DNA of 64,000 nt from Gammaproteobacteria bacterium (GTDB lineage Bacteria; Pseudomonadota; Gammaproteobacteria; GCA-002705445; GCA-002716945), in assembly GCA_045561295.1 (NCBI GenBank), contig JBJKYD010000010.1, positions 32,001-96,000 of the forward strand, given 5' to 3'. A model generated the notes under the pieces. That model was not told where the DNA came from. It worked only from the letters and a program-made list of their open reading frames with translations, and did no database searches. Of this stretch, positions 35,754-63,379 are shown one piece after another. Made by a program: the position numbers and the translations under genes. Each line of letters opens with the position of its first letter. Position 1 is the first letter of the stretch.

Positions 35754-35896
35754 TTTCGCATGAAAAAGGTATTCTATATTAAATTATCAAGAATACTAGA
35801 TATAGCTGATAATTCACTTAAGGTGCATATTAATGTGTATTTTTGGTGCAATTTCCCTTATTATAGTCATGTTAACGTTAAACATTAGGGGAAAAC

Positions 35897-36964
35897 ATGA
35901 AAAAACTATTAAGTTTAGTACTACTTATGGGCCTTTCATCTTTATCTTATGCTGGCGGTCAAGCAATGAGTGGTAGTGAACATAACCATGCTTCTTCAGC
36001 TAAGGCATCTTCCGGAGTTCATTTCTATGGAAGATTGTACATAGGATATGATAAAACATCTGGATCAGTTCAAAGATTAGATGATGGTGGTAATAAAAGT
36101 AGATTGGGTCTTAAAATTAAATCTGGAAATATCATCGGAAACTTAGAATATAAATTCGATATTGGTGATGGTACAAGTGGCGCAGGTAATAACTGTGGTA
36201 CTAATAATGCAAATGGTTGTCAAACATTTGATATGCATGTAGGTAATCTTGGCTTTATGACACCTTTAGGTTATATAGGTGCTGGTACATTTGAAGCGCC
36301 ATATAAAACAATGGGGCAATTTGATACCAATATGGATACTGCTATCGCATTAAACTCTCATGGTGGATTTAGTCAAGGACAAGGTGGTATAGCTGGCAAC
36401 TTCGAAGGTGCTATGGCTTATCATGCAATGATGGGTCCGATAGAACTTGGGTTTATGTATGCAGCGACAGACAATACAGCTAATGACAATACAAATACAG
36501 ACAGAGGAGACTATTCTCTTGGTATTACATTTAAAGACATGGTCATGAGCGGTTTGACATTTGGATATGCAACGTATAATGATAATGAAGTTTCTGGGGG
36601 CGATAGTGAGAGTAATGACAAATTCTTTGCTTCTTACAAAGTAATGCCAAATATGGGCGTATTTGCATCTCTTGAAGATCTTGAAGTGGCAAATACTTTC
36701 ATAGCATCTAGTAATCTAGACGGTGAAATAAAAACCTTTGGTATTCACTACTCTATGGGCACAGCTGATTTACAACTAGTCACTGCAGAAGGTGAGGTAA
36801 GTTCAAGTGGAGCAGCTAATCAAGACTATAACACACGTAGTATCTCTGCGAAAATTAATCTAAGTAAACATTCAGATATTACAATTGGTTATACTAAGCA
36901 AGACTTTGATCAAGATGGAGCTGATGTCAGTACCTCTGGATTTGGACTAACACATAAATTTTAG
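35897..36964 (+). CDS. Gram-negative porin (Porin_4-like), porin 1
   Basis: Signal peptide, V.FYGRL first strand, SRLGLK, terminal FGLTHKF with C-terminal Phe; SD GGGG. Confidence 0.88.
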   Translation: MKKLLSLVLLMGLSSLSYAGGQAMSGSEHNHASSAKASSGVHFYGRLYIGYDKTSGSVQRLDDGGNKSRLGLKIKSGNIIGNLEYKFDIGDGTSGAGNNCGTNNANGCQTFDMHVGNLGFMTPLGYIGAGTFEAPYKTMGQFDTNMDTAIALNSHGGFSQGQGGIAGNFEGAMAYHAMMGPIELGFMYAATDNTANDNTNTDRGDYSLGITFKDMVMSGLTFGYATYNDNEVSGGDSESNDKFFASYKVMPNMGVFASLEDLEVANTFIASSNLDGEIKTFGIHYSMGTADLQLVTAEGEVSSSGAANQDYNTRSISAKINLSKHSDITIGYTKQDFDQDGADVSTSGFGLTHKF

Positions 36965-52923: not shown

Positions 52924-53693
52924 TGAAAGATTTATATTTAATACAAATAACAACTATATTTAAAAAAGAGTTTGCTCGCTGGTCAAGAATTTGGATTCAA
53001 ACTATTCTGCCTTCAGTAATAACTATGTTTTTATACATCACTATTTTTGGAAATTTCATAGGTGAACGTATAGGCGAAATCAATGGTTTAGCCTATATAC
53101 ACTTCATAATACCAGGCCTGATAATTATGCCGATTATTTCAAATTCCTATATGAACGTAGTTGGATCTTTCTATAGTGGAAGGTTTCAAAAAAGCATAGA
53201 GGAATTATTTGTATCACCTCTCTCAAGTCATGTAATTTTAATTGGATATGTGATGGGTGGTGTCTCAAGAGCCTTTGTTGTAGGATTTGTTGTATACATA
53301 GTATCTCTTAGTTTTACAAGCATACCTGTTCATAATGTTTTTTTAGCTATATTTCTTACTCTATTAGTAAGTTTTTTATTTTCTATTCTGGGCTTTATCA
53401 ATGCTGTCTATGCAAAAAGTTTTGATGATATTAATATAATCCCTACATTTGTTCTGACACCACTTACCTATCTAGGCGGAACCTTCTATTCAATTTACAA
53501 CCTACCAGAAGCTTGGCAAACAGTTTCTATGTTCAATCCAATTGCATACATGGTAAGCGCATACAGATATGCATTCATTGGTGTAGAAGACTTAAACACA
53601 TACGGTGCAATATTATTGATGTTCATTTTAATATTTATGCTGTATTCTTTAGCTATATATTTACTCAATAAAGGTATTGGTGTAAAAAATTAA
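52923..53693 (+). CDS. ABC-2 transporter permease (YadH-like)
   Basis: RIWIQTILP, FIIPGLI, IPTFVLTPLTYLGG. Confidence 0.92.
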   Translation: MKDLYLIQITTIFKKEFARWSRIWIQTILPSVITMFLYITIFGNFIGERIGEINGLAYIHFIIPGLIIMPIISNSYMNVVGSFYSGRFQKSIEELFVSPLSSHVILIGYVMGGVSRAFVVGFVVYIVSLSFTSIPVHNVFLAIFLTLLVSFLFSILGFINAVYAKSFDDINIIPTFVLTPLTYLGGTFYSIYNLPEAWQTVSMFNPIAYMVSAYRYAFIGVEDLNTYGAILLMFILIFMLYSLAIYLLNKGIGVKN

Positions 53694-53694
53694 C

Positions 53695-53805
53695 TCTCAC
53701 GAGGTTGGGAAAGTCAGTGAATACATAATCTGACACTGCCCCCGCAACGGTGAACAACAGTCCGAATGCCAACGAGGTGAGACCAACATTAGCGGTGGTG
53801 CTATG
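53695..53805 (+). ncRNA. Compact cobalamin riboswitch (Cbl-II/AdoCbl-variant type)
   Basis: TCTCAC/GTGAGA closing stem, GGGAA, GTCAG-TGAA...-CTGAC T-loop stem, CTGCCCCCGCAACGGT, B12 box AGTCCGAATGCC, P13 TAGC-GGTGGT-GCTA; upstream of btuB. Confidence 0.92.
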
Positions 53806-60677: not shown

Positions 60678-62045
60678 TTACATCAGAAAAGTTGCGATTC
60701 CCAAAAGTGAGACGAAACCAACAACATCTGTGATAGTGGTCAAAATCACACCGCCTGCGAGAGCTGGATCGATATCAAGCTTCTCTAAAATAAGAGGTAA
60801 GCTCACGCCACTTATCGCACCTACAATTAAATTGATCATCAATGCTGCAGCAATCACTCCACCGAGGAACATGCTATCAAACCATAGATAAACAATTCCT
60901 GCTACAACGCCAGACCAAATGATTCCATTTAATAATCCAATAGCAGACTCTTTATAGATGAGAAGTTTTGAGTTTGAGGATCCAATTTGATCAAGTGCTT
61001 GTGCTCTAATGACTAGTGCTAGACTTTGACTGCCCGCAATGCCACCCATACTTGCAACAATTGGCATTAAAATAGCTAAAGCTACAACTTTTTCTATTGT
61101 CGCTTCAAATATTCCAATGGCAGCGGCAGCTAAAAGTGCAGTGAGGAAGTTTGCGCCAAGCCATAATGTTCTTCTTTTAGTACTTTGTATGACAGGTGCA
61201 AAGATATCATCGTCCTTTTTAAGACCCGCCATGTTTAATACACTTTCATCAACCTCTTCTCTAATGACATCGACTACATCATCGACTGTAATCCTACCTA
61301 ATAAAAATCCTTGATTGTCCACCACAGCAGCGGATACTAAATCTGCGTTTTCAAATCGTCTTGAGACTTCGTGTTCTCCTAAATCTGGATCAATAGGGTC
61401 TTCATCTTTTTTCATGATTTGGAAAACATATTTTGAGGGTTCTGCAACTAAGACATCTTTTAATGAGACGAACCCGTGATACATATTTATTCTGTCAGTT
61501 ACAAATATTTTATCTGTTTGATCAGGTAAACTTTTCATTCGTCTTAAATATTTTAAAAGCACATCAACAGTTACATTACTTCTTATAGTAATGGTATCCG
61601 TGTTCATGAGCCCACCTGCTGTACCGTCTTCAAACGACAAAACTTTTTCGAGTCTTTCCTGATTTTGTTTGGTAAGACTCTTAATCGCTTTTCTAGTTAA
61701 GCCTTTTGGAAGAGATTGGATAATATCTGCAAGGTCGTCAGAATCAAGCTTCTCTGCAATCTTTACTAGACCTTCAGTTCCGTCTTTATCAATAAGTTCA
61801 TCAATTAAATTTTCTCGAACTTCATCATGTAGCTCAGCGAGTGTCTCACCTTTATTTTCATCGGTAACTAATGTCCATAAAAGATCCCTTCTGTTACGAG
61901 GTGTACTTTCTATGACATCAGCAATCTCAGATGGATATAGAGAATTGAGTAGATTTTTTGCTTTGATAACTGCGCCGCTATCAAGAACTTCTGAGAGTTG
62001 GTCAAGAGTGACAGTATTATCTTTATTAATGCTTTCTGCAGGCAT
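60678..62045 (-). CDS. mgtE: Magnesium transporter MgtE
   Basis: N-terminal domain, CBS pair (TAGGLM, LLGRITVDD), PIVASMGG, DPALAGGVILTTITDVVG. Confidence 0.96.
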   Translation of the reverse strand: MPAESINKDNTVTLDQLSEVLDSGAVIKAKNLLNSLYPSEIADVIESTPRNRRDLLWTLVTDENKGETLAELHDEVRENLIDELIDKDGTEGLVKIAEKLDSDDLADIIQSLPKGLTRKAIKSLTKQNQERLEKVLSFEDGTAGGLMNTDTITIRSNVTVDVLLKYLRRMKSLPDQTDKIFVTDRINMYHGFVSLKDVLVAEPSKYVFQIMKKDEDPIDPDLGEHEVSRRFENADLVSAAVVDNQGFLLGRITVDDVVDVIREEVDESVLNMAGLKKDDDIFAPVIQSTKRRTLWLGANFLTALLAAAAIGIFEATIEKVVALAILMPIVASMGGIAGSQSLALVIRAQALDQIGSSNSKLLIYKESAIGLLNGIIWSGVVAGIVYLWFDSMFLGGVIAAALMINLIVGAISGVSLPLILEKLDIDPALAGGVILTTITDVVGFVSLLGIATFLM

Positions 62046-62099
62046 TGGTCTGACCTCTCTTGATTTTGTTTATTTTTTACATATTCCTGAGACAAAGAT

Positions 62100-62131
62100 A
62101 ACACAAAGGGCCTACTTAAGTAAGTAGGCCC
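62100..62131 (-). terminator. Rho-independent terminator closing the porin 2 3' UTR
   Basis: GGGCCTACTT/AAGTAGGCCC 10-bp stem followed by TTTGTGTTATCTTT on the minus strand. Confidence 0.8.
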
Positions 62132-62246
62132 CGATATATATAAATGAAATCTTTATCTTAAGAAGGCTAGCTGTCTATGAAATTAGGTTGGTTGTTAACG
62201 TCAAACTAATGGGGGCAGCTAGCCTCTCATCTAGATCCAAAGAGGA
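62100..62246 (-). ncRNA. Candidate 3'-UTR-derived sRNA of porin 2
   Basis: Long hairpin 62164-62225 (AGGCTAGCTG/CAGCTAGCCT and ATTAG/CTAAT), followed by the terminator; a segment is complementary to the porin 1 RBS region. Confidence 0.5.
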
Positions 62247-63379
62247 TTAGAAGTCATGTCTTAGACCAAAGATATAAGTTCTAAAGTCTGTTGTGTTATT
62301 ATTTGCATCACCATCGTGATCAGAATAACCTGCGTAGAATCTACTTGTCTTAGATAGCTTGTATTGCATACCTACGTTGTAAGCAGTTCCATCACCTTCT
62401 GTAGCAGATCCTGCATCAGATTCAGTATTAGCAATTGAATACTGAAGCTTCATTGGACCTGATGAGTAGTGAATACCATACCAATCTACTTCACCTTCTG
62501 AGCTGTCGAACATTTTGCTGTCAATCTCAACATCTTCATGCATATACCATACTTTGACCTTTCTTTTATCAGCAAGTTTCATATCATATGTAATAGTATA
62601 TTTTTTGTTTTCTTTGTCAGCACTGTGATCTGTGGTTCATTGCATACACAAGACTTAAGCCTTTAATACCTAAGTTTTTGTACTCAAGACCGTAACCATA
62701 GTCTTTCTTGTTGTTTGCAGAATATGCAGCTTCGTCATGGTTACTGAAACCTCTAATAGCAGCAAATCTGAAGTTACCAGCTTTAAGCTCGTAAAAACCA
62801 GCTGTTCTCCAATAACCTGAATGAGACATACTACCTTGTGAGATACCACGTGTGTCTCTCATTTGCGCTAATGTATCATGCAAGATATCGTGTTTAGCAA
62901 GAAATTTATAAGGTGATTCCATAGAACCAAACTTAAATTGACCATATGGAGTTAAAAGACCTAACCAAGATTGTTTGTTGGTAAATGCATTTGCTTTAAA
63001 CCCTGCTTCATTATCCCGAGTCATTTGCAACATCTTCACCGTCTGTTCCAGATGAGTCTCCATCACCAAGATCTATCGCCCACTCAACTTTATAGTTGAC
63101 TGAATAGCCATTGCCGATAGAGCTTTTACCTTTAAAGCCCATACGAGCCATACCTTCATCATCAAAGATTGTGGTGTTAGCTTCTCCACCGGCTTTTTTT
63201 GTATTACTGTATTGAGACCAAAGTCGACCATAAAGCTTCGCACTAGAGCCTTTTTTAAGAGCTGGAGATGCGACTGCTTCGTTTGGTTTGATGACAGAAT
63301 TTGTCATAGCACCACCCGTGAAACCGACTAAAGGAACTGCAAGTAAAGCAAGTACAAGATATTTTTGTAATTGTTTCAT
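62247..63379 (-). pseudogene. Gram-negative porin (porin 2) split by two +1 frameshifts; possibly sequencing errors
   Basis: Three ORFs join into 376 aa after removing 1 nt at CCC 63015-63017 and 1 nt at GG 62634-62635; signal peptide, KLYGRL, terminal FGLRHDF. Confidence 0.8.

Follow-up and report, generated by a model that had tools for sequence, protein, structure and literature searches.

A hairpin in the 3' UTR of a porin mRNA as a putative antisense element against a paralogous porin in uncultured marine gammaproteobacteria

The DNA analysed here, referred to as the window, is a stretch of 64,000 nucleotides that forms part of contig 10 of a 1.03-Mb MAG (G000; 32% G+C, 92% complete, 6.8% contamination), the close relatives of which are uncultured marine gammaproteobacteria. 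The window carries two porin genes on opposite strands and a gene for a Mg2+ transporter, mgtE (Table 1). Porin 1 matched no Pfam family at E values up to 1. It is a paralogue of porin 2 with about 31% identity and, used as a query, retrieved the porin 2 orthologues at 1e-23 to 1e-38 with 27-34% identity. In the window the porin 2 frame is interrupted, giving three ORFs, a point that the sequence-only reading of this stretch did not mention; each of these fragments matched the Porin_4 family piecewise. In relatives the gene is intact and encodes 364-370 aa; the orthologue in G004, the closest relative (96% identical), has an open frame and aligned with positions 16-309 of the 310-position Porin_4 profile (E 7e-22). 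Compared with G004, the window has one extra nucleotide at ~62631 and an out-of-frame variable stretch at ~63001-63021. Base 62631 is missing from the RNA contigs in four of four metatranscriptome runs, and near 63013-63021 the frame is restored in all three RNA runs that cover this region, two of them lacking one base and one having two extra bases. The frame breaks in the window are probably assembly errors in a strain-variable loop region, and porin 2 is probably not a pseudogene. Elsewhere in G000, an RNase III match contains an internal TGA (C18:16040-16255) and one RNase E/G-family match is split over two adjacent frames (C1:11678-12488), which we read as additional indications that the assembly contains frameshift errors. 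The sole Rfam match in the window is an AdoCbl-II (cobalamin) riboswitch at 53691-53779 (+), which scored 52 bits against a gathering threshold of 36.5.

Table 1 Features of the porin 1 and porin 2 loci in the window, in order of position.
Feature	Position	Strand	Description
Candidate -10 element CAATTT	35849-35854	+	Positional homologue of SAAAAT in sister genera; predicted start ~35860
Candidate -10 element TATTAT	35859-35864	+	Reads TAnAAT in all genus members; predicted start ~35871
Predicted target in porin 1 leader	35870-35891	+	14-nt block, 4-nt spacer, Shine-Dalgarno sequence GGGG
porin 1	35897-36964	+	355 aa, signal peptide, C-terminal F
mgtE	60678-62045	-	Mg2+ transporter; next same-strand gene after porin 2; outside the element
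Intrinsic terminator	62097-62132 (also called at 62132-62107)	-	11-bp stem with 6 G:C, U-rich tail
65-nt hairpin	62162-62226	-	In porin 2 3' UTR
Candidate seed	62193-62215	-	C run 62211-62215 and GUUUGACGUUAACA 62193-62206
TCCTCTTTG	62238-62246	-	Directly after porin 2 stop; perfect 9-nt complement of porin 2's own Shine-Dalgarno region (63391-63383)
porin 2	62247-63379	-	Porin_4; three ORFs in the window; stop codon 62247-62249

The tail of porin 2 holds a hairpin followed by an intrinsic terminator, as an earlier reading of the sequence alone (the sequence-only reading) had described. In the hairpin, an outer stem joins 62216-62226 with 62162-62173 and an inner 5-bp stem joins 62206-62210 with 62182-62186, leaving an apical loop at 62187-62205. 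The terminator is predicted to close the porin 2 transcript, and its tail overlaps the likely mgtE promoter. Folding of 156 nt of the minus strand gave -48.9 kcal/mol (z -4.8), which was equalled by none of 200 shuffles. The C run and the apical sequence had both been assigned to unpaired loops; in the minimum free energy structure four of the five C residues and the apical UUUGACGUUAACA are indeed unpaired, whereas the AUUAG stretch is held in the 5-bp inner stem. Opening the hairpin in the window would cost about 5 kcal/mol. The suspicion that the hairpin also folds on the opposite strand proved justified: the + strand of this region folds equally well or better (z -5.2), and because both strands are about equal in this respect, fold energy was dropped as a means of calling the strand.

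Several familiar identities for this region were considered and set aside. A search of 61950-62350 against Rfam 15 returned a best E value of 0.22, with all matches far below gathering thresholds, and contained neither MicF, MicC nor any other sRNA family. An Mg2+ leader or M-box riboswitch of mgtE lacks an Rfam match, and the hairpin follows porin 2 where the two genes are split. The 171-nt region is present only once in the genome and is not a dispersed repeat of the REP or MITE kind. A small + strand ORF using the leader-like Shine-Dalgarno (SD) sequence was likewise rejected, since frames of 13 codons found in G000 and G025 are not kept in G009, G026, and G028.

On the + strand, positions 35870-35891 and 62193-62215 form a direct repeat with 13 of 14 identical positions, followed by an unlike spacer of 4 nt and then a G run. 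Any RNA read from the minus strand over 62215-62193 would accordingly be antisense to the leader of porin 1. The pairing put forward in the sequence-only reading, comprising 14 bp with one G:U, a 4x4 internal loop, and four G:C pairs on the SD, was reproduced in both coordinates and letters. The GGGG of the SD (35888-35891) ends 5 nt before the porin 1 ATG at 35897. When both strands of the 1.03-Mb genome were searched, the 13-mer GTTAACGTYAAAC occurred at only two sites, namely the leader and the loop, and when the porin 2 3' region was shuffled 1000 times with dinucleotides preserved, the observed run was matched only once. It is unlikely that the match between loop and leader arose by chance. 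In line with the expectation that porin 1 should stand near the top of a genome-wide target ranking, it came first among 1229 crude start regions by hybridisation energy (-25.8, compared with a mean of -8.8, an sd of 3.2, and -19.7 for the next region) and dropped to rank 2 of 1229 once opening energies were included. A seed-filtered whole-genome scan, for which a longer probe with stem bases was used and sites in coding sequences were allowed, returned 30 windows at or below -26.4; the porin 1 leader is outside these, and two of the 30 are the probe's own locus. An all-against-all duplex matrix of 3' regions and leaders was noisy, with multi-loop duplexes that took in terminator bases, and tests of longest run and opening energy were used instead.

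Two properties of the core limit what can be drawn from it. Its G:U pair is conserved rather than corrected, which speaks against pairing in trans. The core is also nearly palindromic, so that likeness on the sense strand (ACGUUAA) and antisense pairing are not fully separable.

To place the target relative to the porin 1 transcript, we compared porin 1 leaders across genera. Sister genera share porin 1 promoters of the form TTGAAW-17-SAAAAT, and from the leader alignments two -10 candidates were derived for the window (Table 1), neither of which appeared in the consensus promoter scan. The alignments imply that porin 1 transcription would start near 35860 or 35871. Either start would leave the SD and no fewer than 13 of the 14 core bases in the porin 1 mRNA; a start at ~35871 would cost the duplex its first base or so. 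The porin 1 leader has no significant structure.

We then examined conservation among 13 genomes of the genus, which range from 68 to 98% in completeness. Porin 2 and its 3' hairpin were found in eight of them (G000, G001, G002, G004, G005, G009, G010, and G012), and in all eight the hairpin sits 3' of the porin 2 stop on the same strand and shares the terminator of the parent mRNA. The 13-nt loop core TTTGACGTTAACA is identical in all eight genomes, and likewise in 12 of 12 metagenome contigs that carry the hairpin type of the genus. An alignment of the 150-nt 3' region showed a mean column identity of 77%, and its longest invariant block (17/18 columns) lies over the loop core. Both stems show double compensatory changes, at three positions in the outer stem and at one pair in the inner stem. 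On the target side, the leader block GTTAACGTTAAA is kept in ten of eleven genus leaders, the exception being G011 with two changes. Pairing reaches the SD, via a bulge or a small loop, in all six genomes that have both elements. The sequence-only reading had named conserved complementarity and compensatory changes in relatives as checks; complementarity is conserved in core, block, and SD contact, and the stem changes are compensatory. In these six genomes, 18-31 bp are predicted, with a net energy of -8 to -18 kcal/mol after opening of both partners, and the window's own genome has the weakest SD extension, with its 4x4 loop. The contiguous core measures 13-16 bp in the genus, a run that was reached by 0-3 of 1000 shuffles. 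Opening costs amount to about 5-13 kcal/mol in five of the six genomes and 19.8 in G001. In the G009/G010 lineage, a C-to-T change at leader position 14 is matched by a G-to-A change in the loop and is matched in the inner stem as well. The proposed contact between C run and SD held in modified form: the exact CCCCC is present only in G000, G004, and two contigs, and other pyrimidine-rich anti-SD stretches (UCUCC, UUCCC, UCCCUU or ACCUU) take its position in the other genus members.

The stem changes also inform on the strand. Porin 2's sense strand shows four G:U wobbles, while two terminal A/C positions favour the other strand. One reading that does without pairing is that a single RNA-binding protein recognises ACGUUAA/GUUAAC on the sense strand of both leader and loop, or that a + strand hairpin serves as a decoy mimicking the leader. 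ACGUUA is indeed common to both RNAs and to the leader of porin 2, and the + strand folds at least as well. However, outside the shared 7-mer the conserved flanks of leader and loop complement each other and are not identical, which a protein-site model does not predict, and the terminator U tail and the gene orientation join the four wobbles in favouring the minus strand. In addition, the promoter scan found no promoter-like site driving the + strand into 62100-62246; the sole + strand site, at 61991-62020, lies inside mgtE in antisense orientation. Of the readings weighed here, this is the one to which we give the least credence.

The surroundings of the hairpin vary within the genus. In G001, G005, and G012, a small ORF of 141 aa and a second terminator lie between porin 2 and mgtE, and the hairpin stays next to porin 2, which assigns it to that gene rather than to a leader of mgtE. 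The 141-aa product (L017, L015, and L016, respectively) has a signal peptide and a terminal F, resembles outer-membrane proteins, and has its own terminator. Its ORF is absent from the window lineage; in G003, G006, G008, and G011 it is preceded by the gene for an OmpR-type response regulator rather than by porin 2. A module consisting of an AU-rich stretch plus terminator is found upstream of mgtE in all genus genomes and is duplicated in G001, G005, and G012. Among the metagenome contigs, L096 has kept the hairpin and is missing spacer and terminator, so that the hairpin abuts the mgtE ribosome-binding site, and L098, with a porin 2 of 64% identity, has the terminator only and lacks the hairpin.

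The leader motif was also followed in genomes in which neither porin 2 nor the hairpin was detected. It is kept exactly in G003 (98% complete), G006, G007, and G008, and among genomes without porin 2 it has decayed in G011 only. This persistence indicates that the motif has, or also has, another role. A second exact leader-type motif in G006 overlaps the stop codon of an unrelated ORF and was taken as chance. One such role is envisaged in a reading in which both sites are DNA operators of one transcription factor that recognises TGTTAACGTYAAA, represses porin 1 at its start, and acts near porin 2 or mgtE. Besides persisting in genomes that lack porin 2, the motif has the same sequence and strand at the two loci, covers the predicted start of porin 1, and is nearly a palindrome of 14 bp centred on CG, an architecture that may resemble LacI-type operators. 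In G003 and G012, a ferritin-like gene has a related sequence, AGTTAACGTTAAA, upstream of it. Nevertheless, the 13-mer is not a genome-wide regulator motif: it was enriched over a reversed-pattern control in none of 37 genomes, and exact sites are essentially confined to these two loci. Moreover, the porin 2 copy resides in the loop of a hairpin kept by compensation, with 150-200 nt and one terminator between it and the next gene downstream, which points to a feature at the RNA level and would be an odd place for an operator. The anti-SD loops of sister genera, described below, are different and non-palindromic. Taken together, we consider a pair of operators quite unlikely. The ferritin-linked AGTTAACGTTAAA, conserved in the intergenic region beside that gene (L085 in G003 and L086 in G012), is a related near-palindrome that could itself be a protein-binding site.

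The stretch TCCTCTTTG directly downstream of the porin 2 stop raises yet another reading, namely that porin 2 tunes its own translation or decay by contact between the 3' UTR and the 5' leader of its mRNA, as in icaR. The match of this stretch to the porin 2 SD is present in G000, G004, and G002, stretches of the CCUC/CUCU type follow the stop in most g2 genomes, and the loop can form 9 bp with the TTTAACGTTA of porin 2 (G009). On the other hand, G009 and G010 have lost the 9-nt match, and the loop fits porin 1 far better than porin 2, with runs of 13-16 compared with 7.5-9. As a replacement for contact with porin 1, action in cis appears very unlikely to us; it could instead coexist with it.

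In order to see whether comparable pairing extends beyond the genus, we turned to five sister genera. Their porin 1 leaders lack the 12-nt block and have kept only the SD, as GGGGA or GGGGAG. In genera g2 and g6, the interval from porin 2 to mgtE holds another hairpin, homologous between the two genera, whose loop ends in CUCC-type stretches. Loop runs of 10-13 bp on the genome's own porin 1 SD were found in five of ten genomes tested (G025, G030, G028, G026, and G033), with 8-51 of 1000 shuffles attaining runs of this length. The loops of G025 and G030 have a second stretch, which covers the porin 1 start codon. At a leader position that varies between C and U, the facing loop base is G or A, and the combinations observed are C:G, U:G, and U:A, never C:A. 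The other five of the ten genomes showed no significant complementarity, either with a hairpin (G013 and G034) or without one (G023, G029, and G019). The 9-mer AAYGGGGAG around the SD occurs in 5-9 copies per genome in sister genera. In genus g4 (G020, G024, and G027), porin 1 and porin 2 are 2-3 kb apart, compared with 26 kb in the window, porin 2 is not beside mgtE, and a 3' hairpin was not seen. Overall, support from outside the genus is moderate.

These comparisons bear on the simplest explanation that dispenses with regulation, in which the porin 2 hairpin is a structural 3' end element for nuclease protection or termination, and its likeness to the leader is a relic of copying or gene conversion that has no function in trans. 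Such an element would fit with the hairpins of other sequence at the same place in sister genera and with the complete absence of the hairpin from L098, G029, G023, G018, and genus g5. It would also fit with the related TTTAACGTTA in porin 2's own leader, which suggests that motifs circulate among porin loci, and with the lack of RNA evidence for action in trans. A relic should drift, but no part of the 3' region is more conserved than the loop, and the stems around it change by compensation. Furthermore, the conserved blocks of loop and leader have the same boundaries, and the independent loops of g2 and g6 also fit their own porin 1 SD. For these reasons we regard a purely structural or relic hairpin as unlikely.

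As trans-acting RNAs often work with chaperones, the sequence-only reading had named the presence of hfq or proQ as a check. Hfq was found in none of the 13 genus genomes, and ProQ was not found in the window's genome (92% complete), so that any mechanism would be chaperone-independent. All 24 genomes of the other five genera have Hfq, which suggests a clean, lineage-wide loss of Hfq in the genus of the window. The genus that lacks Hfq is also the one with long pairing, which is consistent with a longer, chaperone-free contact but amounts to a single evolutionary contrast. RNase III and RNase E/G are present.

Seventeen listed runs are recorded as RNA, and four of them were examined as assembled contigs, which carry neither strand, ends nor abundance. 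RNA libraries do contain the 3' region of porin 2: contigs from X1 (61975-62293) and X2 (61975-62273) run from the 3' end of porin 2 through hairpin and terminator into mgtE, and X7 contains a 121-nt RNA contig over 62164-62254. Contig depth over the hairpin relative to the coding sequence was lower in X1 and X2 and higher in X7, with no cover in X9; as contig depth cannot rank parts of one gene, these values were counted neither way.

Considering the conserved loop core, its match to the porin 1 leader, and the compensated stems together, we think the chances slightly better than even that the porin 2 3' UTR carries a trans-acting antisense element that represses porin 1. In such a mechanism, transcription of porin 2 would produce a tail with the hairpin loop, and the active form would be either the whole porin 2 mRNA or a processed fragment ending at the shared terminator. 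The loop would pair in vivo with the porin 1 leader and its SD, the pairing would block the 30S subunit at porin 1, and the duplex of ~20-26 bp would probably be exposed to RNase III or RNase E. Porin 1 synthesis would be expected to fall as a result. The long contiguous core, together with the SD-proximal extension, may allow the element to work without a chaperone. A mutually exclusive porin switch, as first envisaged, goes beyond the evidence: a reciprocal element in the porin 1 3' region was not seen, and comparison of that region with the porin 2 leader yielded terminator-stem artefacts only.

A more far-reaching proposal is that, in streamlined (~1 Mb) marine gammaproteobacteria, the mRNAs of paralogous porins are in direct contact, the anti-SD loop of porin 2 silencing porin 1, and that after loss of Hfq in one genus an ancestral seed of 10-13 bp, as in Hfq-bearing sister genera, gave way to a core of 13-16 bp with an SD extension (~20-26 bp altogether), by means of a matched 13-nt block in loop and leader. 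We put this forward tentatively and think it more apt to be wrong than right. If true, it would provide a natural example of base-pairing regulation that was re-engineered after the loss of a chaperone. Already the antisense reading, if true, would mean that a single transcript encodes an outer-membrane channel and silences its paralogue, which would make a very compact circuit for porin choice. The setting is one of abundant, uncultured, genome-streamlined ocean bacteria, in which RNA regulation is almost undescribed, and the contrast between long pairing in Hfq-less genomes and short anti-SD loops in Hfq-bearing ones makes the function and evolution of chaperone-free sRNAs directly testable.

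The kind of regulator proposed here, an antisense element embedded in a 3' UTR that represses a porin at its ribosome-binding site, is already well known. In the micF/ompC/ompF system and for MicC, the ribosome-binding region of one porin mRNA is blocked by an antisense RNA that is linked to a different porin gene, and MicF is a separate, divergently transcribed, Hfq-dependent gene. The porin 2 element would follow the same logic, but unlike these RNAs its antisense part lies inside the 3' UTR of the porin mRNA itself. Loop-mediated antisense RNAs of plasmids and toxin-antitoxin systems are cis-encoded and fully complementary to their targets. As proposed for porin 2, a conserved apical loop presents the seed and pairing is long and chaperone-independent; in contrast to them, the porin 2 element is trans-encoded at a distance of 26 kb and its extension is imperfect.

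In Staphylococcus aureus, the long 3' UTR of the icaR mRNA is reported to contain a C-rich anti-SD stretch that blocks translation by pairing with the SD (PMC3868564). While icaR thus acts on its own mRNA, the best match of the porin 2 tail is a different mRNA, and the icaR-like part would be restricted to the stretch after the stop, seen in three of the five genus genomes in which the porin 2 leader was read. A porin-derived 3' UTR regulator of a paralogous porin appeared neither in the porin and omp passages of a 2022 review nor in a limited literature search.

The nearest counterparts are the enterobacterial porin repressors MalH, from the malG 3' end with targets ompC and ompA, and FadZ, from the fadBA 3' UTR with targets ompD and other porins (PMC8081044, PMC10703908, PMC9438474). 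The porin 2 hairpin is related to neither in sequence or by Rfam family. They differ from the element described here in that its parent mRNA itself encodes a porin and its target would be the paralogue of that porin, and in that Hfq and ProQ were not found and pairing would be much longer, with a contiguous core of 13-16 bp. In common with both, the regulator would reside in an mRNA 3' end, share the terminator of its parent, and pair with a porin mRNA, one uptake function thereby lowering porins. The element would work like these known 3' UTR porin repressors, and we file it with them, as an unvalidated, predicted member of this group.
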